26,333 nt of DNA from a virus (taxonomy: Duplodnaviria; Caudoviricetes). Where the stretch lies: IMG/VR virus record IMGVR_UViG_3300014155_000011, positions 1 to 26,333 of that record; one strand, given 5' to 3'. Below the pieces are notes generated by a model. The model saw only the letters and a program-made list of their open reading frames with translations, did not search any database and had not been told where the DNA came from. This document shows positions 4,541-26,333 of this stretch, one piece after another; positions within the stretch are counted from its first letter, which is position 1; the number at the start of each line of letters is the position of its first letter. A program made the position numbers and the translations under genes.

Positions 4541-4569
4541 AGCGGTGGCGAGGAGTCACCTGCTTTGGA
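4536..4569 (+). promoter_or_regulatory. RNA hairpin occluding the RBS and TTG start of tail tubular protein A (translational attenuator and/or weak terminator)
   Basis: TCTAAAGC-GGTGGC [GAGGA] GTCACC-T-GCTTTGGA: 14 pairs including 2 G-U and one bulged U. Upstream stop TAA in the 5' arm, SD in the loop, TTG in the 3' arm. Confidence 0.6.
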
Positions 4570-8692: not shown

Positions 8693-9110
8693 ATTAGTTA
8701 CGCTCGAAATTGGGCACCTCAAGAAATTGATGGTGCTCCCACCTGATAGTCCCATCACGCCGGAGTCCTACTTTTCCGAGGGCAGCGCAGCTTACTGTTT
8801 GCTGGCGGACGGCAATCCGGTATTCGCCGGAGGCATCGTGAACCTGCAATGGAACCGGGGAGAAGCCTGGATTACTCCGAATGATTTCTTTCACCGGAAC
8901 GTGAAAACCTGCTTCCGCATCCTCAAGAAGATGCTCCCCGAAATCGCCGCGAGCAAGAAATTCCGAAGAATACAGGCAGTGTGCTCCGCCAACGTGCCAG
9001 AGACTCTTTTCCTGCACTTAGGTTTCGAGTACGAAGCTACGTTGAAGGCTTTCGGGCCATTTGGGGAGCGGTGTAAGATGTTCTCAAGAATTTTCGGAGA
9101 TGCAGGATGA
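8682..9110 (+). CDS. GNAT-fold protein at the T7 gp13 syntenic position
   Basis: DG.PV.AGGI......GEAW ... RRIQA........FL..LGFEYE..L..FG..G pattern of phage GNAT-like proteins between nozzle and ejection genes. Confidence 0.75.
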
Positions 9111-9592
9111 CGCCGCAACAGGGAGCAACGGGTTTCATGGGCATAGGGATGCTCTCCTCGTTGTTTGGCGGGATTAGCCAATACAAAGAGGGCCAAGCGG
9201 AAAAATCGGCTTACGATTATAACGCTGACATCACTCTCCAGAACATGCGGGCGCAAATGGTCGCCAGCCAGGAGAAGTATTCCCAACTCGTTGGGCGGCA
9301 GGCGTCCAGTTACGCCCGTGCGGGAGTGGACATTGCTTCCGGTTCTCCGCTCTTGATGATGGCCGCGACTGCTGGGCGTGGAGGGCAAGAAGCCGAACAA
9401 ATCGAGCAGGCGGGAACCGAAGAAGCGGCCTTGCAGCAATACTACGGACGCATAGCGGCATGGAAGGGAACCTTGTCGAGTGTGGGAGATTTTCTTGGCG
9501 GGATGACCGGAAGCCTGTCGAACTATTACAAGATGTTCCCGCCGACACCCGGAGCTACACCCTCAGCATCTCCAGAAGGCGTGATGGGTTAA
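9107..9592 (+). CDS. Small internal virion/ejection protein (T7 gp14-like)
   Basis: Gly-rich hydrophobic N-terminus, Q/A/E-rich helices, GRQASSYARAGVDI.SGSPL motif and Gly-rich C-terminal helix; ATGA overlap with the GNAT gene. Confidence 0.75.
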   Translation: MTPQQGATGFMGIGMLSSLFGGISQYKEGQAEKSAYDYNADITLQNMRAQMVASQEKYSQLVGRQASSYARAGVDIASGSPLLMMAATAGRGGQEAEQIEQAGTEEAALQQYYGRIAAWKGTLSSVGDFLGGMTGSLSNYYKMFPPTPGATPSASPEGVMG

Positions 9593-9595
9593 ACG

Positions 9596-11428
9596 ATGGG
9601 CGGCATTCCTCCACTTCCGATTGCGCAGCCCGTACCGAAGCCCTTGATTTCTCCAGGGGAGATGCGGAACGCGGGGCTTGGTGCGGCTGTCGAGCTAAAT
9701 GAACAAGCCGAGCGAATGACTTCCGTGGGGATGGAACTGGAAGAGAGGATTATCCAGGCCAAGCGCCAGCTTGAAGTGAAGCAGGGCGAGATTGCCTTCG
9801 ATAAGTACCAGGAGCAGACGGAAACGGAACTCGGTAAAACCGTCAGTACAGATGACGTGGACGCGCTCTATGAACATTACCAGAACAGCGCTCCCGATGT
9901 GATGACACCGTACTCGAAAGATCCGAGAGTGGCGCAGGCGCTTAATCTCTACGCGCAGAGCCGCTCGGTGGACATGCAAAGGACCGTCAATGCCAGAAAA
10001 TCCAAGATCATCACCGACCAGGACTTGGCCGCGAACGAACTCAAGGGAGATAAATCCACACAGGATTGGAAGAACGCTTTCCTTTCTGGGGGCGATGTAT
10101 CGCTGGCTGAGGGAGAAGAGAGGCTGACGCTGCAATCGTCGGTTCTTCATGGGACCATGACGCAAGAACGTGCCGACGCGAAATTCCAGGAATGGCTGCT
10201 TAAAACCAAGAAATCGGCTATTGCAGGAATGATGTATAGTCCCGATCCAATCCAGCGTCGGAAATTCATAGACCAACTGAAAAGCGGAAACGTTCCCAAG
10301 GAGTTGGCTGGACTGGATAAAGGATTTCTGAATCAGGCACTTGCGAGTGCGGAAGAAGTGGACAAGGAGCTTACTGCGAAAGCTGAAACGCAAAATCTGA
10401 ATGCTTCGCTCGATAGGATGTACAACGCTTTTAACGCAGTTGACAGTGTGTATAAAGATGATCCCAATGCGCAATCTGCGGCGCTCAAAAATCCAGAATT
10501 TCTGAAAAGCATAGGCGCACTGACTACCGACCCTGTCACGGGTAAGCAAATTCCGAACTGGAGAATGGCGAAAGAGTTAGACCAATATGTGACTGCCGAT
10601 GCCGCCACCCAACAGAAAGCATACGAAACAGCCGCCGACAAGGAAATCAACGCCATATCCGATGACGTTGTAAATCACAAATACGGCGAAGCTCGCGTTC
10701 GTTTGACAAACAATTTGCCGACCATCGAGAAGCCGGAAAAATATAAGGGGCTGGGCGCTCGCTTGAGCGAAATGATTCAAGGAGCCGCCAATCGTGTTGA
10801 TGAGGATATACCTCCGCATGTCGATCTTGCCGAGCGTAGCCGACTGCAAAATGAAATACTTTCCGGCGAGCATGACGACAGCGATCTTCGAGCAGACATT
10901 ATAGGAAGCCGCCAGATCAAGGAGGCGTCCGGCAAGGAGCTGCTCAATCTTATTCCTGCGGTGAGGAACAAGATCATCAGCGAAGGCTTGAAATCCAGTA
11001 ACAATTATCTGCGGTCTGTTCTTGCTCCCAGCAAAGGGGCGATCTTTCAAGCGTTGCTGGAAGGAGGCACCGTAGATGCCGCGACACTGAAAAACATGAA
11101 TCCAGTGGAACAGCTTGAATTTGGACGATTGACTGAAGCGGAGGAAGAACTGACATCGTGGACGATTAAGGAAAACCAATTAGCGGCGTCAGGCAAGCGT
11201 TCTTCTCTCACCCATGAGGAAATTTTCAAGCAGGCCCAGGAGATAGCCAAACATTACATGCCCACGATGGAGCAGAAACTTGACGCCATACACCAGTCTA
11301 CGAAATCCGGTGACAAAGAACCAAAGTCATACAAACTAGGCGACCTCTACGAAGGAAAGAAAATTATCGGCATCAATCCCAAGACGCGCAAATTGAACGT
11401 CGAAGGAGTTGGCGTGGTCGCCTACTAA
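9596..11428 (+). CDS. Internal virion/ejection protein (T7 gp15-like position)
   Basis: 610 aa, helical and charged, Pro-rich N-terminus; second of three ejection-type genes. Assignment is by synteny and composition. Confidence 0.6.
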   Translation: MGGIPPLPIAQPVPKPLISPGEMRNAGLGAAVELNEQAERMTSVGMELEERIIQAKRQLEVKQGEIAFDKYQEQTETELGKTVSTDDVDALYEHYQNSAPDVMTPYSKDPRVAQALNLYAQSRSVDMQRTVNARKSKIITDQDLAANELKGDKSTQDWKNAFLSGGDVSLAEGEERLTLQSSVLHGTMTQERADAKFQEWLLKTKKSAIAGMMYSPDPIQRRKFIDQLKSGNVPKELAGLDKGFLNQALASAEEVDKELTAKAETQNLNASLDRMYNAFNAVDSVYKDDPNAQSAALKNPEFLKSIGALTTDPVTGKQIPNWRMAKELDQYVTADAATQQKAYETAADKEINAISDDVVNHKYGEARVRLTNNLPTIEKPEKYKGLGARLSEMIQGAANRVDEDIPPHVDLAERSRLQNEILSGEHDDSDLRADIIGSRQIKEASGKELLNLIPAVRNKIISEGLKSSNNYLRSVLAPSKGAIFQALLEGGTVDAATLKNMNPVEQLEFGRLTEAEEELTSWTIKENQLAASGKRSSLTHEEIFKQAQEIAKHYMPTMEQKLDAIHQSTKSGDKEPKSYKLGDLYEGKKIIGINPKTRKLNVEGVGVVAY

Positions 11429-11429
11429 C

Positions 11430-14400
11430 ATGGGATGGATAAGACCAACATTGGGGGAAACTGAGGAAACGGCGTGGCAAGGCGTGGCACCCCAGGAACC
11501 GAAAGAAACAGGATGGGAAGGTGTTGCGCCAACCTCTTCGCCTTTTCCGATGGATGACCAAATCAAGCACTTGCCGCCAGAAAAATTGAAATTGTTGATG
11601 GATGCACAACGCATGCAATTCTCATTCGTGGAACTGTCGCCTTTTCCCTTGGATGAGTGGCACGAGGACCAAATCAAGCACTTGCCGCCAGAAAAACAGG
11701 CTGAACAACGCAGCCATTTCTCATCCGTGATGTACGAACTGGCAAGACCTTGGATGGATTTGGGCTACAGTGCGGCCTCGGGACTCAATCGAGGATTAGC
11801 GAGCCTTGCCACTGAAATGGACCAAGTTGTAATGGGTGGTGAACGATATCTTACGGGTAAGACGACGCCGTATCGCTGGTATGACATAGATTGGAAGAAA
11901 TCAGCACAAGCATACGAAGAGAATGCTGATTGGTGGAAAAACCAATTACCGAAAGAGGGCGTGAGAGCTTTTGACAAAGTTTATCGGTTCACGGGCGAAG
12001 CGGCGGGAGGAGTCCTCCCCAGCATGTCTCAATTCCTGATGGATTGGGGTTCGGGGCTTACTATTCCCTATATGGCAGGTACGGAAGAATCCAGGACGCA
12101 CGGTACCGACCCAGTTATCGGCGGAGTCGTGAAGGCTATTGAGGTCGGACTTTTGGGAACAATGTTCCGAATGGTTGCGCCTTTGAAGAGTTGGCTACAG
12201 GCATCAATTCTGGGAACTTATTTCGGAACAGAGAATGCTCTTTTGGCTCCTCCAGGAGAACGCGGTGAGGCTTTCGCTAAAGGCGTTGCCACTGGCGGAA
12301 TCTTGGGACTCACCTCTCCATCGGGAAGATGGGGATTACGGGACATTTATCCCGAGATAGCGGGAGCGGCCCCGAAGCCAGCTCCAACCCCCCCGGAAAT
12401 TACGGGGTTGCGTCCAGCAATCCAGCAGAAAGATGGCTCTGTCGTACAAGGTGTGGATGGGGGAACCCACACGGATATTGTCGAGGGCATGGGAGAACAA
12501 GCGGTCAGCCTGGAGGAGTTAAATAGAAATCCTAAGTTGGCAGACCATGTATTGGAGAAGCCAGAACTTTACATGCCCGCGGTGATTGACCGCGCAGCGA
12601 AACTCAAGGGAGAAGGAGAACCTACGCCTGATGAGGAAGGCGCTCCTGCGGAACCTCCTGAATCCGGTAGGGGTTTCCTAACTCCCGATGGCAAGTTCCT
12701 TGACCGGGAACAAGCGAAAGACTGGGTAAAGGAGAACGAACCCGAAATCTACGGGAAGTGGGCTGGAGTTACAGGTGATGAGGGAGCGGAATTCCATAGC
12801 GAGGATTATAACCAAGCCCGCGAGCAGGTTGGCCAAGCCGACCCGGACTTGTCTGAACTTACCAAAAACCTTCGCGGTCTATCCCCGGACTCGCCCTTGG
12901 AAGAGCGGGTAAGTCTTGCCGACAGGATAAGAAAGACCTATACGGGAGTCCAAGAAGGGATTCGCAATTCCCTTTCTGAAATTAAATCTACGTCTGCCGC
13001 CTTGTGGGATTGGTACAAACACCCCGAAAGACTCTCGGATATTAGAGCCATGATTGATCGTTACAAGGGAGCCAAGGAAATTTCGGCAATGCGCGGCGGA
13101 AGGTTCGCCCGAGCCATACAGGAAACTTACTCCGACCGAACGCAGCGGGCCATGAGTGCCTACGTTCAAGCTGACGGGGACGAAGCTACTTTGCGGAAAT
13201 GGTCGGAGAATACCAGTGATTCATCCCTGAAACAAAAGTACGACGATGCCCTTAAATTGACCAAGGAGCAAAAAGGTTTCGTCCAAGATTACCGAAGGCA
13301 CATGGATGCGATGCTAGACCGAGCTATCGAGTCCGGTACATTGGAGCATGGAATCGAAAACTACGTGCCACAAATATGGGAGAAACCCGACGAGAATCCT
13401 GCCGCCCGTCGCCTGCAAGGAGAATCAAATGCGGGCCTGCTACGAAAAAATCCGTTTTTCGCCAAGAAACGTATTTACGAGAGCATGTTCGAGGGCGAGC
13501 AGGCGGGTCATACCTCGAAGGATTCGCGCTTGGGGTATCTCGTTTCCGCTTGGCATCAGGCTTTCGATGAGGGGTTGAACGCCAGGGCGTTTATCCACGA
13601 ATTAACCAACATGGATGCTTCGGACGGCAGGCCGATGGCTATTACTTCTGGAACTGGCACTCCATTGCCCAAAGACCAGCGCCCCGCATCAGCATTTCTC
13701 GTCAATCCTAATGCGGTGGGTTACAAGGTGACGCAAACGGACCCCGTAACCGGGAAACCGATGAAAGACCCGGTAACAGGAGAAACGCTCAAGCAGTCCG
13801 TGGATGTTTCCGATTACAGCAACCGTGGAATAGACCATCCCGCGCTGCGCGAATGGAAGTGGGCTACATCCGACAACGAAGGCAATCCAATCTTCGTGCA
13901 AGGAGATTTGAAGCTGCACCCCGAAGCCTATGAGGACGTGAGAAGGTTCTTGGGAACTTCCGCTATTCGCCAATCCACTATCGGACGTGCGGTATTGCGT
14001 GGGGCGGGAGAGTTAAAAGGAACGATGTTGGGATTTTTCTCGCCCTTCCACCAAGTTCATCTTGGCGTCACAGCGGTATTTCACGGGGCTAGTCCTTTCC
14101 GTCCACCTGCTATTGACCTGGAAAATCCTCGTGTTCGGGCGCGCATTGAACATGGGCTGAAACTCTATGAAGGCAGCGCCATGACCGAATGGCAGGAGGG
14201 TTTGGCTGGCCCTGGTCTTATCAAGTACATCCCCAAAGTCGGGGAGTATGCTGAACGCTATACGGAATATCAGTTCGGGTTGGACGGCTACATTCCCAGG
14301 CTCAAGAATTACATGGCTGAGGTCTTTGAAGCCAGAAATAGGTCTAGGTATCCCGAACTATCCGAAGACGAAGTATTGAAGTTGACCGGAGACCAAGTAA

Positions 14401-15431
14401 ATGCCACTTTCGGACATCAGAATTGGCGAGGCATGGCGGCGAACAAAACCTTTCAGGACAGTTTGCGCATCGCTGCACTAGCTCCTGATTTTCTCATCTC
14501 CCGTGCTCGGCAAGTGGGACAGGCGCTAAGACCCTACGGGAGAGAACAGTTTACGGCGCTGGCAATACGAGGAGCCGTGGGCATGTACATTGCCTCCAAA
14601 ACCATAGAGGGCATTATCTCCCTGATTGACCCCGAAAAGAACGAAGTCCACTGGGACCGACCCTTTTCAGTGACCGTGGATAGCACGGAGTATTCGCTTC
14701 GTTCGGAAGTGGGTGATGTTTACCACATGCTGCGAGACCCGCGTGGATTTGTCTACTACCGCCTCAATCCCTTTATCGCAAAACCAGCAATCGAAGCCAT
14801 TACAGGAAGAGACCGATTTGGCCGATTGCGCGACCCCTTGGAACAGTTGAAGGACTGGGCTACCTCTGCCGTTCCCATTGCTGGACAGGGATATTTCACC
14901 AAGCAAGATTATCCTCTTTATCAATCAATACTCCAGAGCCTTGGTATAACCACTTGGAGCGCGAGAACGGAAGCGGAAAAAACGGCCAGGGAAATAACTG
15001 CGGAGAAAAGCAAGGTTGAAGAGCCTCCAGTCACGAAAAAACGCATGGAGGCACGTAGCCAACTCAAAAAGGATTTTGAGGAAACCGGGGACTTCAATCC
15101 TATCCGGCAGGCTTGGCACGAAGGCAAGATAACCGTTAAGGATGCCCAGTGGATTACCAACCGGACGTTGAAGGGCGACCTGGAAAGCATGGTGGATAGT
15201 TTCACCGTGCCTGAATCATTGAAGGTTTGGAAAGACGCCACACAGGAAGAGAGGGTGGACTTGCAACCAGTAATCGTAATGAAGTGGTACCGCTGGCAGG
15301 AAAACGCTACGCCTGCGGAGCTACAGGCTTACCAATCCGATATGAATGAAGTGGCTGCCTGGAAACCAACAAGACCCTTGAAACAGGGCAAGCGCAGGTT
15401 TTCGCAAGGGTTTTCGATAGTGGGGAAATGA
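11430..15431 (+). CDS. Large internal virion/DNA-ejection protein (T7 gp16-like position; large polyvalent-type)
   Basis: About 1333 aa from ATG 11430 (TAACATG, coupled to the upstream stop; the tracked TTG 11409 has no RBS spacing). Gly/Ala hydrophobic helices in the N-terminal part, ENYVPQIW..., FAKKR.Y motifs and a C-terminal region like large phage ejection proteins. Confidence 0.7.
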   Translation: MGWIRPTLGETEETAWQGVAPQEPKETGWEGVAPTSSPFPMDDQIKHLPPEKLKLLMDAQRMQFSFVELSPFPLDEWHEDQIKHLPPEKQAEQRSHFSSVMYELARPWMDLGYSAASGLNRGLASLATEMDQVVMGGERYLTGKTTPYRWYDIDWKKSAQAYEENADWWKNQLPKEGVRAFDKVYRFTGEAAGGVLPSMSQFLMDWGSGLTIPYMAGTEESRTHGTDPVIGGVVKAIEVGLLGTMFRMVAPLKSWLQASILGTYFGTENALLAPPGERGEAFAKGVATGGILGLTSPSGRWGLRDIYPEIAGAAPKPAPTPPEITGLRPAIQQKDGSVVQGVDGGTHTDIVEGMGEQAVSLEELNRNPKLADHVLEKPELYMPAVIDRAAKLKGEGEPTPDEEGAPAEPPESGRGFLTPDGKFLDREQAKDWVKENEPEIYGKWAGVTGDEGAEFHSEDYNQAREQVGQADPDLSELTKNLRGLSPDSPLEERVSLADRIRKTYTGVQEGIRNSLSEIKSTSAALWDWYKHPERLSDIRAMIDRYKGAKEISAMRGGRFARAIQETYSDRTQRAMSAYVQADGDEATLRKWSENTSDSSLKQKYDDALKLTKEQKGFVQDYRRHMDAMLDRAIESGTLEHGIENYVPQIWEKPDENPAARRLQGESNAGLLRKNPFFAKKRIYESMFEGEQAGHTSKDSRLGYLVSAWHQAFDEGLNARAFIHELTNMDASDGRPMAITSGTGTPLPKDQRPASAFLVNPNAVGYKVTQTDPVTGKPMKDPVTGETLKQSVDVSDYSNRGIDHPALREWKWATSDNEGNPIFVQGDLKLHPEAYEDVRRFLGTSAIRQSTIGRAVLRGAGELKGTMLGFFSPFHQVHLGVTAVFHGASPFRPPAIDLENPRVRARIEHGLKLYEGSAMTEWQEGLAGPGLIKYIPKVGEYAERYTEYQFGLDGYIPRLKNYMAEVFEARNRSRYPELSEDEVLKLTGDQVNATFGHQNWRGMAANKTFQDSLRIAALAPDFLISRARQVGQALRPYGREQFTALAIRGAVGMYIASKTIEGIISLIDPEKNEVHWDRPFSVTVDSTEYSLRSEVGDVYHMLRDPRGFVYYRLNPFIAKPAIEAITGRDRFGRLRDPLEQLKDWATSAVPIAGQGYFTKQDYPLYQSILQSLGITTWSARTEAEKTAREITAEKSKVEEPPVTKKRMEARSQLKKDFEETGDFNPIRQAWHEGKITVKDAQWITNRTLKGDLESMVDSFTVPESLKVWKDATQEERVDLQPVIVMKWYRWQENATPAELQAYQSDMNEVAAWKPTRPLKQGKRRFSQGFSIVGK
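11538..11741 (+). repeat. Imperfect in-frame tandem duplication (~100 bp x2) with a 30-bp identical core
   Basis: GACCAAATCAAGCACTTGCCGCCAGAAAAA at 11556-11585 and 11667-11696; protein SPFP.D..DQIKHLPPEK...QR..FS.V..EL occurs twice. Confidence 0.9.
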
Positions 15432-15432
15432 C

Positions 15433-15828
15433 ATGAAGATTGAAATCAAAACTATTCCACATGAGAAGCAACGCTACGAGACGGTAGGTGACTGGCAAAT
15501 TCTTCCTGATGGCTCGCTCAAGATTGCAGTGAGCGAAATGGGCAACGACGACTATGCGTTTTTGGTGGCCATTCACGAAGCCATAGAAGTATGGCTCTGT
15601 AAGAAACGCGGTATCACCACGGAGCAGGTAGACACTTTCGACATCGTATTCGAGCAGAACCGAGCCGATGATGATGACTCTGAACCCGGAGACCATCCTG
15701 ATGCCCCCTATCGCAAGGAGCACTTCTTTGCGACCAGTATCGAGCGCCTGCTGGCGGCGGAATTGGGCGTAGACTGGGAAACATACAGTTCTGTTGCGGA
15801 GTACGACAAGACCGTGACGGAGTTGTGA
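15433..15828 (+). CDS. Putative metal-binding protein, zincin-like HExxE...H motif (possible peptidase/hydrolase)
   Basis: 131 aa; LVAIHEAIE helix followed by EPGD.P.APY..EH..A..IE, giving clustered His/Glu candidates for metal ligands. Confidence 0.6.
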   Translation: MKIEIKTIPHEKQRYETVGDWQILPDGSLKIAVSEMGNDDYAFLVAIHEAIEVWLCKKRGITTEQVDTFDIVFEQNRADDDDSEPGDHPDAPYRKEHFFATSIERLLAAELGVDWETYSSVAEYDKTVTEL

Positions 15829-17084
15829 TGGGAGAGTATTCGACAAAGAGCGTGGCGGTGGTGGACAATGGCTGCTTTTCTGAACTAGCCGCCACTCTAT
15901 CTGAATCATTTGGAAAGGTTTACTACAATTCTCCCTGGGTTGCGGATTATGTCACTTCCTACCACACCGAACTGGGAGAAGGCTTCCCCGACTTCGAGCG
16001 TGTCAACGACATTTGGGAAATCATAGACGACGTGGACTTGTTCATCTTCCCAGAACTTCATCAGGGGCCATTACAGGAATATCTTGCGCGGCAGGGGAAG
16101 CGGGTTTGGGGATCGCGCAATGGGGACGAATTGGAACTCTATCGCAAAGAGGCCAAAGAGCATTTCAAGGAGTTGGGCATCCCCCAAGCGCCCTATGAAG
16201 TGGTCAAGGGTATGGATGCGCTCCGCAAATACATCAAGAGCCGTGGCAAAGATAAGCTGTGGATTAAGATTAGCCGCACGCGGGGCGATACGGAGACCTT
16301 CTCAGTAGAGGGCTACGACTTGGCGAAAAACCATCTGGACGAACTGGAAGCGGGATGGGGGCCAGTCGCGGAGTACCGGGAGTTCATCGTGGAGGATAAC
16401 CTTCCCGATACCTTCGATTTGGCAATTGACACCTACTGCATTGACGGAAAATATCCTTCTAAGTCCTTGCTGGGAAACGAGCAGAAAGATGAAGGCTACA
16501 TCGGCGTGGTCAAGGAATGGAACCAGATGCCCCCCAAGATGGTGGACATCTACGACAAACTTAGTCCGTCCTTAAAAAGCTACGAGTACCGCAACTTCTT
16601 TGCCTTGGAATCGCGCACAGGGAAGGACGAGATATGGCTGGGAGACCCGTGTATGAGAGTAGGTTCCCCCATCTTTGAACTTGAGTTGAACATGCTCAAG
16701 AACCTTCCAGACATCCTCTGGCAAGGTGCGGAAGGAACGCTGGTCGAGCCGGAATATAAAGGGAAGTACGGATTTGAAGTTTTGGTGCAAAGCCCGTGGG
16801 TTGACGACCATCCGTTGCTTGTGGAGTTTCCCGACAAGTTTCGGGAACAAATCAAGTTCCGCTATGCTACACAATTCCCAGATGGTTTGTGGATCATGCC
16901 GCAAAATGCCGGTCCCATCTTCGGGGCCATCGTAGCCTACGGAGACAGCCTAGAGGAATGTTTCGCGGAAGTCGAAGAAATCAGCGCGGAACTCAAGGGC
17001 TATAAAGTGCAGACGTTCAGCGGAGCGGTCCCAGAGTTGCAGAAAAATCTAGACAAGCTGGAGGAATGGGGCATCTCATTTTAG
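15828..17084 (+). CDS. ATP-grasp ligase, PurD (GAR synthetase)-like architecture, substrate unknown
   Basis: RVWGSRNGDELELYRKEAKEHFKELGIPQAPYEVV...ALRKYI...LWIK parallels PurD IFGP...LE.SK.FAK......GIPTA.Y; FIVED and DPCMRVG (cf. E.N.RFG) motifs follow. ATG 15828 overlaps the upstream TGA (TGATG), with GGAG at 15819-15822. Confidence 0.75.
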   Translation: MGEYSTKSVAVVDNGCFSELAATLSESFGKVYYNSPWVADYVTSYHTELGEGFPDFERVNDIWEIIDDVDLFIFPELHQGPLQEYLARQGKRVWGSRNGDELELYRKEAKEHFKELGIPQAPYEVVKGMDALRKYIKSRGKDKLWIKISRTRGDTETFSVEGYDLAKNHLDELEAGWGPVAEYREFIVEDNLPDTFDLAIDTYCIDGKYPSKSLLGNEQKDEGYIGVVKEWNQMPPKMVDIYDKLSPSLKSYEYRNFFALESRTGKDEIWLGDPCMRVGSPIFELELNMLKNLPDILWQGAEGTLVEPEYKGKYGFEVLVQSPWVDDHPLLVEFPDKFREQIKFRYATQFPDGLWIMPQNAGPIFGAIVAYGDSLEECFAEVEEISAELKGYKVQTFSGAVPELQKNLDKLEEWGISF

Positions 17085-17560
17085 CCATGAACTCCCTTCC
17101 AAATAACGCGCCGTTTGATTGCAGAAATCAAGACCCCGGATACCCCGTAGTCATTTGCTATCACTTGATGAACTCGTGTATCGGAAAGGATTTCTACAAC
17201 CTGAGAAGCACACAATTTGTTTCCCTTGCGGCACTTCCTCGCAGCATCTTTCATATTATCGTCCTGTGTACCCAAAAAAAGATGTGCAGGGTTACAACAT
17301 CGTGGAGTGTCGCATTTATGAAGGACGCAAAGATTTTGGGGAATAGGACCAACAAACTCCTCGTATGCGACGCGGTGGGCTGCAAGGTCGTGTCCGTTAT
17401 GTCCCAAATGTCCGTAACCCTTACTGTCCAAGCATGCAGTCCAAAGCCAACATCCTGTTTTGGAGTCTGGAATGGTGCGATTAAAAATTCTTTCTTTCAG
17501 TGGCGTAGATGGCGGGAACAAGCGGTAAGATGGGTTTTGCGGCTGGAGTTGTTTCGGCAT
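17081..17560 (-). CDS. HNH homing endonuclease (HNH_3-type) with C-terminal HTH-like DNA-binding segment
   Basis: GCWLWT....GYG...AHRVAYE.FVGPIP..L.VLHKCD.P.CCNP.HL.LGT..DNM.D signature; IA.DYGVS..LIS.IKR...W C-terminus. GGGAGG RBS just upstream on the minus strand. Its stop overlaps the ATP-grasp stop at 17081-17084. Confidence 0.92.
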   Translation of the reverse strand: MPKQLQPQNPSYRLFPPSTPLKERIFNRTIPDSKTGCWLWTACLDSKGYGHLGHNGHDLAAHRVAYEEFVGPIPQNLCVLHKCDTPRCCNPAHLFLGTQDDNMKDAARKCRKGNKLCASQVVEILSDTRVHQVIANDYGVSGVLISAIKRRVIWKGVHG

Positions 17561-17604: not shown

Positions 17605-17623
17605 TGATAAGGGGAAGGACGGG

Positions 17624-17692
17624 ATGAAAATGCGAAAAGCTATCTGGTTGGCGATTCTGGTCTTTGCTTGCCTTCCGGGAATCTCCCGTGCC
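17624..17692 (+). other. Predicted Sec signal peptide of the tail fibre
   Basis: Basic n-region MKMRK, hydrophobic AIWLAILVFACL, helix-breaking PG, S-R-A cleavage motif. A non-canonical lipobox reading (VFA-C) is less likely. Confidence 0.75.
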
Positions 17693-20600
17693 ACGGTGCA
17701 GGATACGACTTTCACCGTCACATTTAACTGTACTGGAACTACTGGTCCCTATTCCTTTGTGTTCCCTATCAGCGACCCCACTGCCTTGACGGTCACACAG
17801 TCTGGTACGGTCCTAGCCTCGACAGCCTACACCGTCGCGCCCGTAAACAACAATTATGCGAATGGCGGAAGCGTCACTTTGATTACCGCATGTCCGGCAA
17901 GTGGCACGCTGGTTTTGAGTCGAAACACGCCGCTTACCCAGAACAGCGTTTTCACCGACAACATGCCGATACCTTATAAGACCTTTGAGCGGGGGCTGGA
18001 CAAGCTGACCGAAATTGACCAGGAAATTGACGCGGAAGTATCGTCTATCACCACAAATGGAGCCTGCTTTCCTGCCTCGACTTGCCAGCTTGCTGGAACG
18101 ATTCCAACCACTCCCGTTGGTTTTAGTACCTCTCCTAGCTTCAATGCCACGCTAGACACCAGCTATTCCATGACAATGACGGGCAACGTGACCTCTTCCA
18201 CCATCACGGGCAAGCCGCTGAACGGGAACCTGCTGTCTCTCACTCTCACGCAGAACTCCACGGGCGGCTATACGTTTGCCTTCCCCTCGAACTTTGTGTT
18301 CACGCCGACGTTCGTCTTCCAGACCGCTGCGAACGCTATCAACGAGCTGACCTTCAAGTACGACGGGACGAACTGGCATCTTATCTCGAACGGCGGCGGC
18401 TCGGGAGGTAGCACGCTTCCTGGCGGCAATTCAGGCGACGTGCAGAAGAACTCCGGCTCGAACACGTTCATCGCATCGGGAATCAATGACACTGGAGCGG
18501 TCATCAACCACAAAGAAGATGTGGAGTTTATCGGGCCAAATCCCTATGTGGACGTTCGCAGTTATGGCGCACGGCCTGTCTATTACGCCACGTTGCCCAG
18601 CGGCACAGTGACGATGAGTGCTAGTTCTACCACAGCAACTCTTTCATCTGCGAGCGCATGGCAGAACGGCGATGGCATCACGATTCTAGGCGCTGGACCG
18701 ACACCAACGATGTCCACTCCCAATGCTCCTGCTGCTACAGCGAGCATAGCGGCCCAAGGAACGGGGACAGGACTTGTCGTTAATGCCCCTAATGGCTCAA
18801 CGACTTATCAGTACCAAATCGTAGGACGTGACATTCATGGAGGCATGACCGCAGCAAGCCCGGTGGTAACTATCACTAACGGTGCAGCGACTTTAGGTTC
18901 TGTGCAGGTCAATCTCACTTCCTGTTCCCGCGCAACCAACGTAGTGACCTGCACAACCAGCACAGCGCATGGATTATCTGTGGGTGCGATGGTCTACATC
19001 ATCGGAACAAGCGATGACTTGGATTTCGGTGGCTGGCCCATCATCAACACCGTTCCTGACACTTCGCACTTCACGTATCTGTCAAACATAGACGCACGCG
19101 GCTACAACAACGGGCAGGGCGTGTCAGCCACAGGCGGAACTGTGCGGTGGTTCAACTGCAATCACCTTCAGGTTGCCTCGCCGGGGGCGGGTGTGTGGCA
19201 GTATTACATCTACGGTCGCACCAGCGGCAGCATGACACTGCTTGGCGCAACCGCTCCTACGAACTCTACTTGGGTTGGAAGTCCCCTTTACCTGACATGG
19301 GATGACTTTGGCAGCACCATGAGCATGCCTCCCACGTTGCCCTCCTATATTCCCAACACGCCACAATCCAGCGCCTCAAACGATAATCTTACGACCACGA
19401 TTGTTAGCGGTGCGGGCACAACCACGCTTACCTTAGCAAACGCCTCCAGCAATGCGGTTTCTGGTGCCACGGCTCTCTTTGATGACGGTCCCGGCTTGGT
19501 TGCTGCCGCCACCGCCTCCCATTCTACAGGCGGTATGGTTTATATCCCTGCGGCATCCCAAGGTCTATATTATCCCATCAATTCATATACTAAGTTACCC
19601 TATCTCACGGGAGTGTCTCAGGCGGGCGTATTGAGCCTTAATGAAACCTTGGACATCAACGGTGCCCAATGGTACGGGAACTTAACGGTGAGTTCGACCA
19701 CTTTCACGCAGCAAGGATTTCAAGGTTATTCTTCAGTTCAAGTAGTTACCGCCTACCCTGGTCTTTATAGCTCGAACTTAGTGTTTGTCAGTGGCATTTA
19801 CACCTACGGGGCCAATCCTAATGGCTTAATCTGGGTCATAGACAACGATAGCAACATTCCTGGTAGTACTTTTGAAAATGATTCGATTATAACCGCACTT
19901 TCTGGAAACGATTATTTGGGCATAGGAATGATTGTGAGGGGAGGCAGTGACCATTTTTTCCGTAAGATAGCGATGGGTTCAAATCAGTTAGGTGGAGGCG
20001 CTCATGCCACGCCAGTACTGTTCCTTTATTCTGGCCAAGTAACCATGCAAGATTTGTACTTGAACTATCGTTCTATCCAAAGTTATGGTGCAGGGGTATG
20101 GATTAAAGGAGCGTATCGTTCGCAGGGGGCATCTCCTTTTCTTGCATTCGCACCGTCCACTCCTGGGGTAGTGGTAGAGATTGACAACTTAACACAAGAC
20201 ACGGATGCCGACCCTGTTATAGCTCAATGGGGGGGAGGTTATTCTGCTACGGCAATCTTGAACAACACCTGTTGTCCTTCTGGACCGCCTTTGGTTAGCG
20301 GGCTGCCGCTTCTTGACACAATTGTGAGTGGGGAGGGAGGAAATTATGCACCAAACTTGAATGCTATCACGACGCAAAGTGGCGTAATCGCGGCTCCTAA
20401 TTATACTCAAGGACAGACAGGTGCTGGAGCCACAGTAACTTCGTACAGTCAACCGCTAATCTTTAATGGTAATCCAGGTTTCAACATCATTTGGCCGCTG
20501 AACGCACCAACCAACATTTCGGTAATAGGTCCAACCTCTGGTGGTGGTCTCGGAGTTGGGACTATCAACTACACCGTTGCGGCTATCGGTTTTGATGGCG

Positions 20601-23600
20601 GTATATCCGCCGCTGCCGGGTACTCCTCGGCATATAATTGCACCACAACATCGGGAAACCAGACTTGCACTATTTCGTGGACTGCTGTTCCTGGTGCAAC
20701 TGCTTATAGAGTATATCGTTGTAACCCTGGAGGCTTTGGCAATGGTTGCGGTGGTCTTCCTTCCACGGCAAGTACGACCTATGTGGATACAGGAGGGAGC
20801 GGCGGTGGAAACCTTACCAACATCCCTGGCAGTGGCATCATCTCCATCGGCTACGACTCCAACCAACGTCCGATGATTTCCACGCCGGAACTGATTGTGC
20901 CCGCGACTACGGTTCCCACGGGAGTTTCCGGGGCAACCTATCACTATACCGACCCAACTGCCAACTGGCCGGCGTTCAAGGCAAATGGTGCAACGGCTCT
21001 GGTCGCAGGTTTCAGTGGCATATGGTCGCAAGGACAATGCGCGGTTGCCAGCAGCACGACGAACGTATTCAATCTTGGAACCTGCGGAACGGGAGGTAGT
21101 GGAAATACCACCTCTACATCACTGACAACGAACGTCGTGCCGAAAGCCAACGGCGCGAACTCCATCGTAAATTCCAGCATCACGGACAATGGTAGTGCAG
21201 TTTCTACAACCGAGGGATTCACTGCTGCGACGGTTACAGCCACCAGTCTCACGACAGGAAATTGTGTTCAGGCAAGCACATCGGGACTGCTGACCACTGT
21301 CTCCGGTCCATGCGGTACGAGCAGCGGAACGATCACAGCAACCGGGAGTCCCGTTGCCAGTGAGTTGGCAATGTTCTCTGGAGCAACCTCCATCACCAAC
21401 AGCAACTTGTCAGGTGACGTGACCACTTCAAATACCTTGGCTACCACCGTTGGCAAGTTGGAGAACATCGCCCTTCCTACGTTGGCTGCCAACACAGGAT
21501 TCCTATACGATGCTTCTGGTACGCTATCGCTAAGTGCCAGTGCCTCGAACTTGACGGCGGGAACTCTTCCCGTTGCTCAGTTGCCAACCATTCCCAACGC
21601 TAGTTTGGCTAATGCGGCAACCACGGTAAACTCGCAAACCTGCACCCTCGGCTCAACCTGCACAATTCCTTTCCAGACCGTTGGTGTCAATAACACATCG
21701 CAGGCAGGCCTCAACCTTGTCGCCTCTAGCGTGAACTCCGTGGGTTTGACGGCCACACCTATTAACACAGGAACGAACGTAGACGAGATTCGCATTACGG
21801 GATCATCCTACACGGGAAATGCTGCTACGGCCACGGCGCTGGCGGCCAATCCCACGACCTGTTCTGCGGGACAAGCACCACTTGGTATCGTCGCAAGTGG
21901 TAACGCAACGGGCTGCTTCACGCCTTCTGGCGTGCTGCTCCAGACTAACACCAGCAGCAACGCTTCGCAGACCACATTGAATTTCCTTACCAGCACAACC
22001 AACACGGACGGACTTACAGTTACGCCCTCGAACTCTACTAGCACCGAGAAATTCGAGGTTACGGGAACCTGTAACACCACAGCGGGATGCACGGGTGTGT
22101 CCGCCCCGACCGCGCATACCATTCCAGTTGCAGAGGGTTTAAGCCCTATGACATTCATCTACCCGAATGCAGCAGGTGGATACGTCTTAACTTCAAACGG
22201 AATAGGAGCAGACCCTTCATTTCAAGCCGTTCCAGGCAACAATATGTCCGGGGGCACGCAATACGGCATGGCCTATGCTGCGGGTGCAACCACCATCACA
22301 AGCAATGCGCCGCCTACGACGAAAGGACTGTGGTATCCCGTCTGGAACCTTTCTAGCGACGCAGCCGCAGCACCCACGAATTCTCTCGCGGGCATCGTGG
22401 ACGTGGGCATTAGCGGCTCAACCAGCACCTACACTGTGGCTTACTCAAACTCATTGCAAATCGTGGAGCACGACTCTGCGGCAACCCATCTCGTTACCGT
22501 GACCATTCCCACGCCAACAACACTGGAGAACACGCAGTTTGGCTTCTCCTACGTGAACCACACATCCTCTTATACGGACGTGCTCAGCCCGACGACATGG
22601 ACCATAAACGGCAGTGCCACGCTCAACGTCGCTCCCCTGTCGCAATGCCGCGTCAGCGTGGACCCGGTGAACTCAAATAATTGGCTGGCGGATTGTTCTC
22701 CTTCCACGGCCTTCGTCGGTGTGACCAGCATCGCTACGACTTCGCCAATCAGCGGTGGCACGATCACTTCGACCGGAACTATCTCCTGCCCGACCTGTGC
22801 GATTGGTCCTGGAGCCTCGGTGACAAGCGGAAATGTGGCCTCGTTCAACGGAACGGGCGGGTTGATTATCCAAGACTCTGACATAGCGGCGGCAAACCTT
22901 GTGACTGCGGCCTCGAACTACAGCGGAAATCTTGTTACGGGGACCAACGGGGCCAAGACAACCTCCGATAGCGGCATCGCTCCGGCAACGGTCGTAACCT
23001 GCGCTTCGGCTGGAACGAGCGGCGACCTGATTCAATTTGCCGGAGCCAACCGGACCTGCTCCGACTCTAGCATTGCAACTTCCAACGTCGCGCAAATCAA
23101 CATCGCCAACAACTTCAGCGCGAATGCAGCCTCCAGCGCCCCAACGATTAAGTTCACCGGCACAACCTTCTCTGGGAACGGCACGACTTCCACGCCACTG
23201 TTCCTCCTAGAGTCGGGCAGCGCGGTGAGTTCGTGGAGCACAGCGGGAACGTATCAGGGCTTCAACGCTGCCAGCGGGTTCACGGGCAATTTCTTTGATG
23301 CTCACCTGAATGGTGGAGCATCCCTTTTCAGTGTGAACTATCAGGGCAATTTGATAGCAGCGGGGACAGTGAATGGTGTAACGATGACCAACGTGGTTCT
23401 TGCTTCCTCTCCCGGCGCGGGCGTCGCCCACTTCGCCGGGTCTACGCAGACAGTAACGAGTAGTTTGGTCGCTCTGACCGATATGGCCACGCAAGCAGCC
23501 GATACCGTCTTGATGAATGCTACCGGGGGTTCTGCTGCTCCAACCGCAGTGGCTATGCCGACAACTGGAACCAATGGTTGTGCGGGAACTACCGACAACT

Positions 23601-23989
23601 TAATTTATAACACCTCGACGCACTCTCTTGGATGCCATCAGATCACAGGCGGCGGAGGGTCGCTCACTAGCAGCGGCTTGACGGCCTACTATCTTTACGG
23701 CCTATCTGGTTCCACATTGACTGCTGCTGAAGCAAGTAGCAGTTCTACGGTCATGCCGGGTATTTGTGTGGCTTCATCCTCAACTGTTTGCGTCTATAGC
23801 GGGGTAGTCACGAACGGCTCTTGGACGTGGACGGCAGACGGGGTGATTTACGCCTCGGACGGCCCAGTGGGAACGATGACTCAGACCGCGCCTTCTACCA
23901 GCGGACATTTCGTGCAGCGCGTGGGCATTGCTACGTCAACTACTTCGATGCTGGTCATGCCTTCGCTGGACGTGGTGACGATACAATGA
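17624..23989 (+). CDS. Giant multi-domain tail fibre/tailspike (2121 aa) with N-terminal signal peptide, T7 gp17-like anchor, beta-helix, Fn3-like and fibre-repeat regions
   Basis: After MKMRKAIWLAILVFACLPGISRA comes TV.....TF..TG....YSF.FPI.D...L.V...GGSVTL....A...LVL.R.TPLTQ...F.D.......FERGLDKLT.I.QE, the podoviral fibre anchor. Later: YVDVRSYGA...DDG....AA...GG.VYIP (tailspike beta-helix head), ISWTAVPGATAYRVYR...TYVDTG (Fn3-like), DSGIA-type repeats and a C-terminal G.MTQTAP...G..VQ.VG.A module. Confidence 0.85.
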   Translation: MKMRKAIWLAILVFACLPGISRATVQDTTFTVTFNCTGTTGPYSFVFPISDPTALTVTQSGTVLASTAYTVAPVNNNYANGGSVTLITACPASGTLVLSRNTPLTQNSVFTDNMPIPYKTFERGLDKLTEIDQEIDAEVSSITTNGACFPASTCQLAGTIPTTPVGFSTSPSFNATLDTSYSMTMTGNVTSSTITGKPLNGNLLSLTLTQNSTGGYTFAFPSNFVFTPTFVFQTAANAINELTFKYDGTNWHLISNGGGSGGSTLPGGNSGDVQKNSGSNTFIASGINDTGAVINHKEDVEFIGPNPYVDVRSYGARPVYYATLPSGTVTMSASSTTATLSSASAWQNGDGITILGAGPTPTMSTPNAPAATASIAAQGTGTGLVVNAPNGSTTYQYQIVGRDIHGGMTAASPVVTITNGAATLGSVQVNLTSCSRATNVVTCTTSTAHGLSVGAMVYIIGTSDDLDFGGWPIINTVPDTSHFTYLSNIDARGYNNGQGVSATGGTVRWFNCNHLQVASPGAGVWQYYIYGRTSGSMTLLGATAPTNSTWVGSPLYLTWDDFGSTMSMPPTLPSYIPNTPQSSASNDNLTTTIVSGAGTTTLTLANASSNAVSGATALFDDGPGLVAAATASHSTGGMVYIPAASQGLYYPINSYTKLPYLTGVSQAGVLSLNETLDINGAQWYGNLTVSSTTFTQQGFQGYSSVQVVTAYPGLYSSNLVFVSGIYTYGANPNGLIWVIDNDSNIPGSTFENDSIITALSGNDYLGIGMIVRGGSDHFFRKIAMGSNQLGGGAHATPVLFLYSGQVTMQDLYLNYRSIQSYGAGVWIKGAYRSQGASPFLAFAPSTPGVVVEIDNLTQDTDADPVIAQWGGGYSATAILNNTCCPSGPPLVSGLPLLDTIVSGEGGNYAPNLNAITTQSGVIAAPNYTQGQTGAGATVTSYSQPLIFNGNPGFNIIWPLNAPTNISVIGPTSGGGLGVGTINYTVAAIGFDGGISAAAGYSSAYNCTTTSGNQTCTISWTAVPGATAYRVYRCNPGGFGNGCGGLPSTASTTYVDTGGSGGGNLTNIPGSGIISIGYDSNQRPMISTPELIVPATTVPTGVSGATYHYTDPTANWPAFKANGATALVAGFSGIWSQGQCAVASSTTNVFNLGTCGTGGSGNTTSTSLTTNVVPKANGANSIVNSSITDNGSAVSTTEGFTAATVTATSLTTGNCVQASTSGLLTTVSGPCGTSSGTITATGSPVASELAMFSGATSITNSNLSGDVTTSNTLATTVGKLENIALPTLAANTGFLYDASGTLSLSASASNLTAGTLPVAQLPTIPNASLANAATTVNSQTCTLGSTCTIPFQTVGVNNTSQAGLNLVASSVNSVGLTATPINTGTNVDEIRITGSSYTGNAATATALAANPTTCSAGQAPLGIVASGNATGCFTPSGVLLQTNTSSNASQTTLNFLTSTTNTDGLTVTPSNSTSTEKFEVTGTCNTTAGCTGVSAPTAHTIPVAEGLSPMTFIYPNAAGGYVLTSNGIGADPSFQAVPGNNMSGGTQYGMAYAAGATTITSNAPPTTKGLWYPVWNLSSDAAAAPTNSLAGIVDVGISGSTSTYTVAYSNSLQIVEHDSAATHLVTVTIPTPTTLENTQFGFSYVNHTSSYTDVLSPTTWTINGSATLNVAPLSQCRVSVDPVNSNNWLADCSPSTAFVGVTSIATTSPISGGTITSTGTISCPTCAIGPGASVTSGNVASFNGTGGLIIQDSDIAAANLVTAASNYSGNLVTGTNGAKTTSDSGIAPATVVTCASAGTSGDLIQFAGANRTCSDSSIATSNVAQINIANNFSANAASSAPTIKFTGTTFSGNGTTSTPLFLLESGSAVSSWSTAGTYQGFNAASGFTGNFFDAHLNGGASLFSVNYQGNLIAAGTVNGVTMTNVVLASSPGAGVAHFAGSTQTVTSSLVALTDMATQAADTVLMNATGGSAAPTAVAMPTTGTNGCAGTTDNLIYNTSTHSLGCHQITGGGGSLTSSGLTAYYLYGLSGSTLTAAEASSSSTVMPGICVASSSTVCVYSGVVTNGSWTWTADGVIYASDGPVGTMTQTAPSTSGHFVQRVGIATSTTSMLVMPSLDVVTIQ

Positions 23990-26121
23990 AAAGATTCTTC
24001 ATCCTGATCGCGCTGTTGCTCTGTACCTCCCAGGCGCGAGCTACGCTCTCGATCATTCAAAACACGAAGATTGCCGCCGTGACGTGCGGCACTACGACGG
24101 GAACCGCGTGTACGCTCACCGTGCCCTCGTCGCAATCGGGCGGCAATTCAATGTTCGTGCTGCTGGCGTTTAACAGCGCGGAAAATGCTAACTATATTTC
24201 AACTACGAAAGTACCGACCTGTTCGGGCTGCGGAACATGGGTGGTTCCTACCACGGGTTGCGAGGGAACTTACACTTACGGTGCGATTAGCTGCGCGTAT
24301 CTTTTAGCTAGCCCGTCTACTTCCATAAGCTCCGTTGTAGTGGTTTGTAACAGCTCAGGGACCTATTACTTTTACTGGTTCGAGATTGCTTTCACGAAGT
24401 CTCAGGTTCTTCTCGACGGCAATCCGGCAAGCAGCATCGGCACTTCAGGTACGAGCATCGCGATGCAGAGCTTGACCACGACAGGGACGAGCGAGGTCAT
24501 TATCGAGGCTATCGAGACAGCGTGTTGCACCGTGACATACAGCGCTCCAAGCCCATATAACACGTACTTTCTACAAGGGGCTAACACCTACGGTGCGGCG
24601 ACGGCCGCCATCACCACGTCAACAAGCTATAGCTGGGGCGTCTCTCCAGCGCATACTAGCGACCTGTTGGGAATTGCTTTCTACGAAAGTAATCCTACTT
24701 GCGGCACGCCCGTTTTTGGGACCATCCCGAAGATGTACGACGCCAGCCTTCCGCAGACGACGACCATCACGAGCGGCTGTACCTATGATTGCTATGCGTT
24801 CAATGGCGCTCCAGCTTCGGCCAGTCCGCCAGCGTGCTCTGCTGGAACGCGAATCAGTGACGGCGGAACGGTTACCCTTCCCGTGGGAACGAATACTTTA
24901 GAAGCGCTCGGTACGGACACCAACTACAATCCTAGTCCCGTGCAGACGGGTTCTTACAACATTCAACGCACTGCATCGGCGTTCAACGGAATTACCGTTG
25001 GAAACGTTTCGGGTAACGTTAATGCGATAAACGGCAACCCGCTTGGGAATGCGATTCCCGGCTCGGGAACATCCGGCGCGTGGGACTCTCTTGCGACCCC
25101 GCTCCCGTTCGTGGCGAGTATGTTCCTCGATTCCCATGCTGGGACGAACGGAGTCGCGCCGACATACATCACGCTTGGAAATTCGGCTTATTGGGCTTCC
25201 GGTGAAGGGTCTCACGCGACGTGGACAACTGCTTCTCCGGGGGCTGGTACGATCTATAGTAATGTGCCCCCCGTTGGAAACTTACTGCAACCCGTGTACG
25301 TTGCAGGCACGGTTTACAACGCGACTGGAACTTTGGGATTACTGTGCAACACTTCGGCCAGTGTTCCTGCGTCTACCTATTGCGCGATACCGTATGTTAG
25401 CGTTAATAACGCTGGGCCATCGACCTCGCTCGGCTTTTGGGTTTTGCCAAATTGTCCCGCGAATCAGGCCGTTGATTGCGGGGCGCAGAGCGGACTGTGG
25501 AGCAGCTCTGGCGGCGATGTGGTCGTTCATTTCAATCCGGGTCCGGGCGGTAATAATCCGTGCAACTATAATGGCATCATGTTTGAGATGTCCGGTGGGA
25601 ATGAAGCTACATCGTGTTTTTCCTACACGAACAATGTTTTGTATCGCATCAACCTACAAGCAAATCAGTCTTCAGGAACGGTCACGGCGACCTTTAGCAA
25701 CGGTTCCGCTGTTATCTCCGCTACGCAAAGTTTTGGCGTGAATGAAGCTGTTCAACTTTCGACCACAGGAACCTTGCCCACTAACTTCGCCACGTCCACC
25801 ACGTATTACGTTCTCTCTACAGGGCTATCAGGGAGCGCCTTCGAGCTTGCGGCATCTCAAGGCGGAACGGCGATTGTTGCCGGAAGCGCGGGGACTGGAG
25901 CGCAGACCGTTACGGTAATTGGTCAGCTAACGGTGTGCAACGCAAACGGCACGCTTCTCGGAAATACGACAGGAACAGCGGCCACCAGTGGTGTCGTATT
26001 TGATAAGGTGATCTTTATGATCGTAGGTGAAGGGCCGGAGGTTGCTGGTGACAGTTTTTGGTATGGTGGCTATGTGTTGGACTTGACGGGTAAATTCTCC
26101 GCGACGAGCTGCATCCTATGA
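23986..26121 (+). CDS. Secreted-type Cys-rich multi-domain beta protein (711 aa; putative appendage/adhesin with a CHB_HEX_C/Fn3-associated-like domain)
   Basis: True start is ATG 23986 (ATGA overlap with the fibre stop), not the tracked 23821. Signal peptide MKRFFILIALLLCTSQARA. TPVF...Y...QT.TI...CY..NG.P...TVTL...TLEALG...Y..S.V..GSY.I at ~24697-24963; phage-type V.L.TTGTLP......TYYV.....F.LA...GG module at ~25681-25915. Confidence 0.8.
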   Translation: MKRFFILIALLLCTSQARATLSIIQNTKIAAVTCGTTTGTACTLTVPSSQSGGNSMFVLLAFNSAENANYISTTKVPTCSGCGTWVVPTTGCEGTYTYGAISCAYLLASPSTSISSVVVVCNSSGTYYFYWFEIAFTKSQVLLDGNPASSIGTSGTSIAMQSLTTTGTSEVIIEAIETACCTVTYSAPSPYNTYFLQGANTYGAATAAITTSTSYSWGVSPAHTSDLLGIAFYESNPTCGTPVFGTIPKMYDASLPQTTTITSGCTYDCYAFNGAPASASPPACSAGTRISDGGTVTLPVGTNTLEALGTDTNYNPSPVQTGSYNIQRTASAFNGITVGNVSGNVNAINGNPLGNAIPGSGTSGAWDSLATPLPFVASMFLDSHAGTNGVAPTYITLGNSAYWASGEGSHATWTTASPGAGTIYSNVPPVGNLLQPVYVAGTVYNATGTLGLLCNTSASVPASTYCAIPYVSVNNAGPSTSLGFWVLPNCPANQAVDCGAQSGLWSSSGGDVVVHFNPGPGGNNPCNYNGIMFEMSGGNEATSCFSYTNNVLYRINLQANQSSGTVTATFSNGSAVISATQSFGVNEAVQLSTTGTLPTNFATSTTYYVLSTGLSGSAFELAASQGGTAIVAGSAGTGAQTVTVIGQLTVCNANGTLLGNTTGTAATSGVVFDKVIFMIVGEGPEVAGDSFWYGGYVLDLTGKFSATSCIL

Positions 26122-26333
26122 AACTACGATGGTTCATTCTCGCTTTGCTTTTGCTTCCGTTGCGTGCTTCGGCGCAAGGCACTTACACGGCTAATTCCTG
26201 CAACTATTCGGACGTGAACGCGGTCATCAACGGCCCGACGCACAAGGCGGTCAACGGAGACACCATCAACATCCCTGCAGGTAATTGTACGTGGACTTCT
26301 GGCATCACCGTGCCGACAGGAATCGGAATCTCC
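26118..26333 (+). CDS. Secreted-type right-handed beta-helix (pectin-lyase fold) protein, 3'-truncated
   Basis: Not in the ORF track because it runs off the window. ATGA overlap; translates MKLRWFILALLLLPLRASA-QGTYTANSCNYSDVNAVINGPTHKAVNGDTINIPAGNCTWTSGITVP. SC...DV...I...A..GDTI.IPAG.CTW is a typical beta-helix N-cap. Confidence 0.8.
   Translation, partial: MKLRWFILALLLLPLRASAQGTYTANSCNYSDVNAVINGPTHKAVNGDTINIPAGNCTWTSGITVPTGIGIS

Follow-up and report, generated by a model that had tools for sequence, protein, structure and literature searches.

The prevailing view is that tailed phages assemble their particles wholly in the reducing cytoplasm of the host, and the fibres of the phages T7 (gp17), LME-1, HRP29 and P-SCSP1u are made there; in phage P22, the spikes join the heads last, and do so in vitro as well. 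Virion proteins with Sec signals are known from the filamentous phages (pIII and pVIII), pIII also having periplasmic disulfides, and the particles of these inoviruses form at the membrane and leave the cell by extrusion. The spike Dpo31 of the Cobetia phage Carin-1 joins the tail via its D1 domain, and the fibre trimer of LME-1 touches both adaptor and nozzle (PMC13317679 and PMC12407071, excerpts). Here we describe a spike gene in a viral stretch of 26,333 nucleotides (positions 1 to 26,333 of IMG/VR record IMGVR_UViG_3300014155_000011; hereafter the window), whose open reading frame (ORF; 17624-23989, 2121 amino acids) places a predicted export signal directly ahead of an anchor domain of the Carin-1 type. 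Because the anchor follows a predicted cleavable Sec signal, we infer that the spike is likely exported, folded in the periplasm and docked only at lysis. The relevant features of the gene are:

17624 to 17692, + strand: predicted Sec/signal peptidase I (SPase I) signal peptide, residues 1-23, with the cut after S-R-A, called from the sequence
17693 to 18040, + strand: tail-spike anchor domain, beta-sandwich at about residues 24-110 and helix at about residues 118-140, with the fold of Carin-1 Dpo31 D1 and T7 gp17-N
17729 to 17731, + strand: Cys36, first member of a putative disulfide, also found alone in signal-less relatives
17891 to 17893, + strand: Cys90, its putative second member, found along with Cys36 in 101 of the 115 relatives that have the signal and in none of the 25 that lack it
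18041 to 23989, + strand: rest of the spike, rich in Thr, Gly and Ser, with a predicted beta-helix at about residues 291-1000, mosaic among relatives

The segment 17624-18040 reads MKMRKAIWLAILVFACLPGISRA, then TVQDTTFTVTFNCTG...RNTPLTQ...FERGLDKLTEIDQE. A purine-rich ribosome-binding stretch precedes the ORF at 17610-17619, and the signal is intact whether translation starts at Met1 or at Met3. In a rule-based test the leader displays the basic n-region, the hydrophobic h-region and the small-X-Ala site of a Sec/SPase I substrate, and its h-region is the most hydrophobic 19-mer of the entire 2121-residue protein. The same rule was positive in three of the 17 window genes, every one of them within the fibre cluster (the spike gene and the next two); as a background, it flagged 10 of 6959 internal 40-mers (0.14%) and none of 120 adaptor homologues. 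The ORF is not an assembly artefact, because single contigs of two wetland metagenome runs (X1 and X3, possibly the window's own source) span both the leader-anchor junction and the whole ORF with zero indels; these contigs, together with the existence of homologues, rule out a chimera. No RNA data set was listed as containing the sequence.

A first homologue search had returned six other long homologues, all with the leader and both cysteines. For a broader view we took the best 150 of the 2726 matches of a representative search and pooled 154 sequences, from which 14 were dropped (nine N-terminally cut or mis-started, four short fragments and one with an ambiguous leader). Of the resulting 140 full-length relatives, 115 have the leader and 25 do not, counts that are not family frequencies, because the query contained the signal and the set is thus enriched for signal-bearing proteins; leaderless status follows database gene calls, apart from four loci confirmed on the DNA. 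Of the 115 signal-bearing proteins, 99 have Ala and 13 have Gly at position -1, 81 have Ala at -3, and 105 have Thr at +1. Two other export routes were considered and rejected: a Cys at +1, as for a lipoprotein processed by signal peptidase II, occurs in 0 of 115, and the Tat-type motif RRxF[LI] in just one of 115. Judged by sequence, the spike carries a predicted cleavable Sec-type leader, and a signal predicted ahead of the anchor is a family trait in many uncultured relatives of this wetland phage.

An earlier note, made from the letters of the window, had described the gene as a signal peptide fused onto an intact T7 gp17-type anchor. The leader and the fold have held up, while the nearest relatives of the anchor turned out to be those of the Carin-1 subgroup. 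Residues 24-140 match PHROG families of tail and tail-fibre N-termini (1640, E 1e-10; 5510, E 8e-8; 6518, E 2e-5), and a profile of 57 relatives finds Carin-1 Dpo31 in the Protein Data Bank (PDB) with E 1.3e-24, a match that runs loosely past the anchor; the profile match to fibre anchors that the note had proposed to look for is thus present. Aligned directly with hhalign, the window anchor and the Carin-1 anchor match at 93.7% (E 1.8e-7, 115 columns). The AlphaFold model of the anchor reaches a pLDDT of 83.6. Structure matches from VIA were LME-1 (Z 10.3, rmsd 2.9, 73 aligned residues), Carin-1 (Z 9.7, rmsd 2.9, 74 aligned), P-SCSP1u (Z 8.6) and T7 gp17 (Z 7.0, rmsd 3.1, 71 aligned); Foldseek agrees with VIA on podophage fibre anchors, and the nearest ESM Atlas clusters (score 0.93) contain PF03906 in 25-73% of their members. 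The Pfam check suggested in the note failed: the window spike has no direct match to PF03906 (Phage_T7_tail) at the gathering cut-off, and just two of the 57 alignment members match it weakly (best E 0.0018). A single-sequence search of the PDB gave no match either. From the structure searches, the Dpo31 profile and the missing Pfam match, we assign the anchor to the T7 gp17-N fold and, within it, to the Carin-1 subgroup; its closest family is Carin-1/BcepC6B/HTVC010P-like and not T7 gp17 proper.

The mature Thr-Val that follows the predicted cut aligns without a gap to Thr2-Val3 of Carin-1. A conserved Phe stands 21 residues after the first mature residue in 108 of the 115 signal-bearing proteins, and likewise in 17 of the 25 signal-less ones once their Met is removed, which bears out the idea that cleavage would restore the normal N-terminus. 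The window spike keeps 26 of the 27 columns that leaderless anchors conserve, and leader-bearing proteins keep 84% on average; judged from its sequence, the docking surface does not look degenerate, in line with the note. A complex prediction with two adaptors and three anchors scored 0.00; it was run with no controls and weighs neither way. Compared with six complete relatives, the anchor is 47-78% identical, a degree of conservation like that of the adaptor (53-76%) and the capsid (59-77%) in the five genomes compared for each. Beyond the anchor, the spike does not align in four of the six complete relatives and shows short patches in two. A conserved anchor with a divergent remainder is the usual pattern of fibres (PMC10386132, excerpt). 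Pfam and NCBIfam searches assigned no family to the 2121-residue spike; residues 291-1000 are similar to a viral Beta_helix cluster of the ESM Atlas (score 0.94). Neither a transmembrane segment nor a lipobox was found in the mature chain. Its 33 cysteines make up 15 close pairs where 6.9 would be expected, a number of pairs reached by 0 of 20000 random sets.

Two of the cysteines lie in the anchor itself, Cys36 taking the place of the first Gly in a G-N-G motif. A pair of anchor cysteines is present in 114 of the 115 signal-bearing relatives and in none of the 25 signal-less ones. It comes in two alternative forms, 36/90 in 101 proteins and 73/78 in 21, with both in eight, and of 102 proteins with Cys90, 101 have Cys36 too. 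In a tree for which the cysteines were masked, leaderless, Cys-free proteins nest among leader-bearing ones, and the leader state switches 14 times by parsimony, at least four of these across well-supported branches. As read from these sequences, leader and Cys pair are coupled across repeated gains and losses of the leader; Cys36-Cys90 and further pairs in the spike would be disulfide-bonded.

The window as a whole is a 26-kb fragment of an epsilon15/BPP-1/Carin-1-like podophage and not of a T7-like one, as seen from the genes around the spike:

1126 to 2187, + strand: signal-less major capsid protein, epsilon15/BPP-1/Carin-1 type (PF20911, E 1e-61)
4565 to 5311, + strand: T7 gp11-like tail adaptor without a signal, presumably a docking partner (phrog_394, E 1e-29)
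5315 to 8692, + strand: tail nozzle, T7 gp12-like, with inserted domains, no signal, presumed second docking partner (phrog_376, E 2e-120)
9107 to 15431, + strand: three genes for putative ejection (internal virion) proteins, Cys-free, no signal; the first matches phrog_418, the others are assigned by position and composition
15825 to 17084, + strand: ATP-grasp/PurD-like gene, no signal (TIGR00877, weak at E 0.008), recognised close to the anchor gene at 18 of the 24 loci
23986 to 26121, + strand: second signal-bearing protein of the fibre cluster, 711 amino acids, 3.1% Cys, no anchor domain
26118 to 26333, + strand: third signal-bearing gene (by the signal rule), truncated by the contig end

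None of the head, tail and ejection genes of the window is signal-positive. The capsid protein is about 30% identical to those of BPP-1, BcepC6B and Carin-1 (tblastn), and the adaptor matches the Carin-1 connector at 93.8% in hhalign. Gene order is alike in Carin-1, where Dpo31 follows the ejection genes; the window adds the ATP-grasp-like gene and an HNH gene in between.

Several further observations concern these neighbours. The nozzle has 1125 amino acids against 830 in Carin-1 (849-1213 in relatives), with E1_FCCH-like repeat insertions, and in G009 it is apparently divided over two genes. Between capsid and adaptor lie several small genes with no leader (2200-2703, 3081-3719, 3729-4112 and 4112-4540), which have no firm family match and, by the analogous position in Carin-1, probably encode cement or head-decoration proteins. 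The ATP-grasp/PurD-like gene is 58-72% identical in six complete relatives, and only two Aquificae viruses match it among 50,697 phage records; near 16958-16973, contigs of two runs break and three bases differ. It is usually directly preceded by a small gene with a HEAIE motif (15433-15828 in the window), which has homologues in six of 24 loci and no family match. Two HNH endonuclease genes are present, at 2-397 and at 17081-17560, the latter an opposite-strand (-) insertion just before the spike gene.

The arrangement recurs elsewhere. Of 24 anchor loci (a set that omits the duplicates L005 and L011 and contains the near-identical pairs L013/L014 and L017/L018), 20 have the leader; 22 viral loci, like the window, lie on phage contigs, and the anchor gene typically lies inside a run of leader-bearing, Cys-rich genes that follows the ejection and ATP-grasp genes. 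Ten contigs, nine of them at least 90% complete and six with terminal repeats, were searched whole, and a single anchor match was found in nine and two matches in one. Because nine of the ten hold only signal-bearing anchor genes, these genomes offer no cytoplasmic substitute for the anchor; in the complete genome G003, the spike is the sole long fibre-like gene that we noticed. In six complete genomes, the terminase, portal, capsid, adaptor, nozzle and ejection genes are leaderless wherever recognised, the one signal flag on a capsid gene having been traced to a wrong start. Two relatives that were checked encode ordinary signal-less endolysins (phrog_7). As variants of the layout, G004 has two signal-bearing anchor genes (L010:5123-7276 and 9947-15706) flanking its ATP-grasp gene, whose products would compete for tail sites, and at L024:3143-5273 a signal-bearing anchor gene directly follows the adaptor gene.

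Outside phage contigs the anchor is rare: it was found in one of 401 Acidobacteriota genomes searched and at two loci in a pattern scan of 185,579 genomes. One copy (L026:4139-11218) lies in an Acidobacteriaceae genome bin, in an integrated satellite-like element with integrase-like, primase/helicase and helix-turn-helix genes; its anchor-fibre gene encodes 429 amino acids with the signal and both cysteines. No adaptor match was found in this genome, which is incomplete, and the element may fit its own fibre onto the tails of a helper phage. The host of the window phage is probably an acidobacterium, the only direct pointer being that the L026 copy sits in an Acidobacteriaceae genome.

We consider it reasonably probable that the spike is exported through Sec, folded with disulfides in the periplasm and then docked on the adaptor and nozzle at lysis. 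Expressed late, the protein would pass through Sec and be cut by SPase I after Ala23; host thiol oxidases would form Cys36-Cys90 and about 15 more disulfides, and the chains would trimerise. Meanwhile, capsids with signal-less portal, adaptor and nozzle would be assembled spike-less in the cytoplasm, until holin lesions and lysis brought the particles to the periplasmic spikes. The restored Thr-Val N-terminal domain would then bind adaptor and nozzle in the manner of the Carin-1, LME-1 and T7 anchors, and the remaining signal-bearing proteins of the cluster would be added as extra receptor-binding parts.

An exported spike might also act away from the virion, as a free or surface adhesin, a receptor decoy or an exopolysaccharide-degrading enzyme, with its anchor kept for trimerisation or folding. 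The MAT fibres of Bdellovibrio, signal-bearing adhesins that resemble phage fibres and have a conserved beta-rich domain behind the signal, give this idea a precedent (PMC10769870, excerpt); several signal-bearing genes of the cluster lack an anchor, and the signal-bearing anchor gene of L026 sits in an integrated element, with no adaptor match in its incomplete genome. We nevertheless regard a purely off-virion role as unlikely in view of the exact N-terminal register, the retained conserved residues, the lack of another anchor gene in most complete genomes and a mature chain free of membrane anchor or lipobox. Tyrosine integrases were detected in 0 of five complete genomes (controls 14/14 positive; serine integrases were not searched for), and this result and the rarity of the anchor in bacterial genomes speak, as the note had argued, against pure domestication; a chromosomal position away from virion genes, the mark of a MAT-like domesticated adhesin, was not found, the viral loci lying on phage contigs and the one copy among 401 Acidobacteriota genomes inside an integrated element. 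To our knowledge, every described podophage spike docks in the cytoplasm, and this one could do the same through a leaderless isoform made from an internal start or through a weak or retained leader that allows only partial export. GTG is indeed the codon for the conserved Val25 in the window, as it is in 10 of 22 genes with the signal, yet it also makes up 177 of the 571 other Val codons of these genes, 12 of the 22 have a non-start codon at Val25, and a Shine-Dalgarno-like motif precedes it in none of the 22; a conserved internal start is ruled out by this codon use and the missing motif (22/22). A textbook cleavage site is kept in 115 diverged proteins and the Cys pairs track the leader, for which a reducing cytoplasm would not select, so that cytoplasmic docking appears very unlikely to us. 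The spike could instead stay bound at the inner membrane or at some site in the periplasm for an organised completion before release, possibly aided by the ATP-grasp protein. That the gene for this protein neighbours the signal-bearing cluster at 18 of the 24 loci fits such a scheme, and diffusion-limited docking of trimers of 2000-residue chains during a brief lysis looks inefficient; the mature chain, however, has no transmembrane tether, the signal-less endolysins of two relatives are in line with classical holin lysis, and the ATP-grasp gene, itself signal-less and also present in two Aquificae viruses, is tied to the spike by nothing that we found, which makes this scheme improbable.

Several points weigh against export followed by docking at lysis. 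The signal calls come from a custom rule-based test and not from SignalP, and the relatives stem from the best matches of a signal-bearing query, as described above; among 30 matched records, judged by annotation, none is a cultured phage with this anchor and a signal. The claim that both cysteines stand where homologues have none was only partly right: both are present and the pair is specific to signal-bearing proteins, but Cys36 occurs unpaired in 19 of the 25 signal-less relatives, and the sequences therefore single out Cys90, or the second pair Cys73/Cys78, as the signal-specific features. By mutual information, the 36-90 pair ranks 74th among 6105 column pairs, while 73-78 ranks first. 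The tree is a quick one of 120 columns with 70 of its 136 inner branches unresolved. Two relatives (L012:9977-11053 and L021:9977-11050) encode an anchor protein of 357-358 amino acids that has neither leader nor Cys and is directly followed by signal-bearing genes, the layout of G007, so that the anchor itself need not be exported; this layout would be a split version, in which a cytoplasmic adaptor arm still needs the attachment of exported distal parts. A PF03906 search of five complete genomes gave zero matches and missed the known anchor genes as well, which leaves room for a second T7-type fibre; an unrelated cytoplasmic fibre could escape a profile search, and a nozzle with large insertions could recognise the host alone. 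We entertain only tentatively, as somewhat less than probable, the wider proposal of a podophage lineage widespread in soil and wetland in which all receptor-binding parts are Sec-exported and oxidised by the host, the virion is completed outside the cytoplasm and becomes infectious only on mixing at lysis, evolution toggles the route by adding or removing a leader of 20 residues, and integrated satellites export their own anchor fibres onto helper tails.

If export and docking at lysis hold true, the last step of virion assembly would depend on the envelope, infectivity would be tied to host export, disulfide machinery and lysis timing, and phages could bind their receptors with disulfide-rich adhesin folds; the failure of annotation to recognise the spikes of many soil phages would be explained as well. 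No report of signal-bearing fibres in tailed phages was found in the literature searched, the coverage of which is incomplete and excludes supplements; the nearest matches (PMC10820202, PMC8951688 and PMC5723332) concern, in their excerpts, endolysins or unnamed genes. New here are the coupling of leader and Cys pair over repeated gains and losses, the mature N-terminus in exact register with that of an anchor of known structure, and the satellite-borne copy.

Among known systems, Carin-1 stands closest: D1 of its Dpo31 (PDB 8CK1, 28LX) is the best sequence match and a near-best structure match to the window anchor and shares its T-V register, and the two phages have the same spike gene slot, homologous capsid and adaptor, and a downstream beta-helix spike. 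Dpo31, in contrast, begins M-T-V without a signal and has no Cys at the two aligned positions, and Carin-1 has one spike gene in the slot where the window has a cluster of signal-bearing genes. The anchors of T7 (gp17-N, PF03906; PDB 7BOZ), LME-1, HRP29 and P-SCSP1u share the fold of a beta-sandwich plus helix, whereas the window anchor has no direct Pfam match and belongs to an epsilon15/BPP-1-like phage. Unlike the inoviruses, the window phage is tailed, with a cytoplasmic capsid and endolysin-bearing relatives. The Bdellovibrio MAT fibres are a cellular parallel by description; they are bacterial chromosomal adhesins (PMC10769870, excerpt), whereas the gene described here lies in a phage late operon and has a virion tail anchor after its signal. 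Tunturi 1 (PP887698), a cultured acidobacterial podovirus of Tunturiibacter, likewise has spike-region genes with signal-like leaders, seen by eye on gp12, gp13, gp14 (the annotated tail spike), gp16 and gp17; the main text of the Tunturi paper, in its excerpt, is silent on signal peptides and on mass spectrometry (PMC11924767). Tunturi 1 belongs to another head and tail lineage and has no match to the window anchor, a difference to be added to the points against our reading; since it is an acidobacterial phage in culture whose spike genes bear signal-like leaders, it nonetheless makes the idea directly testable.

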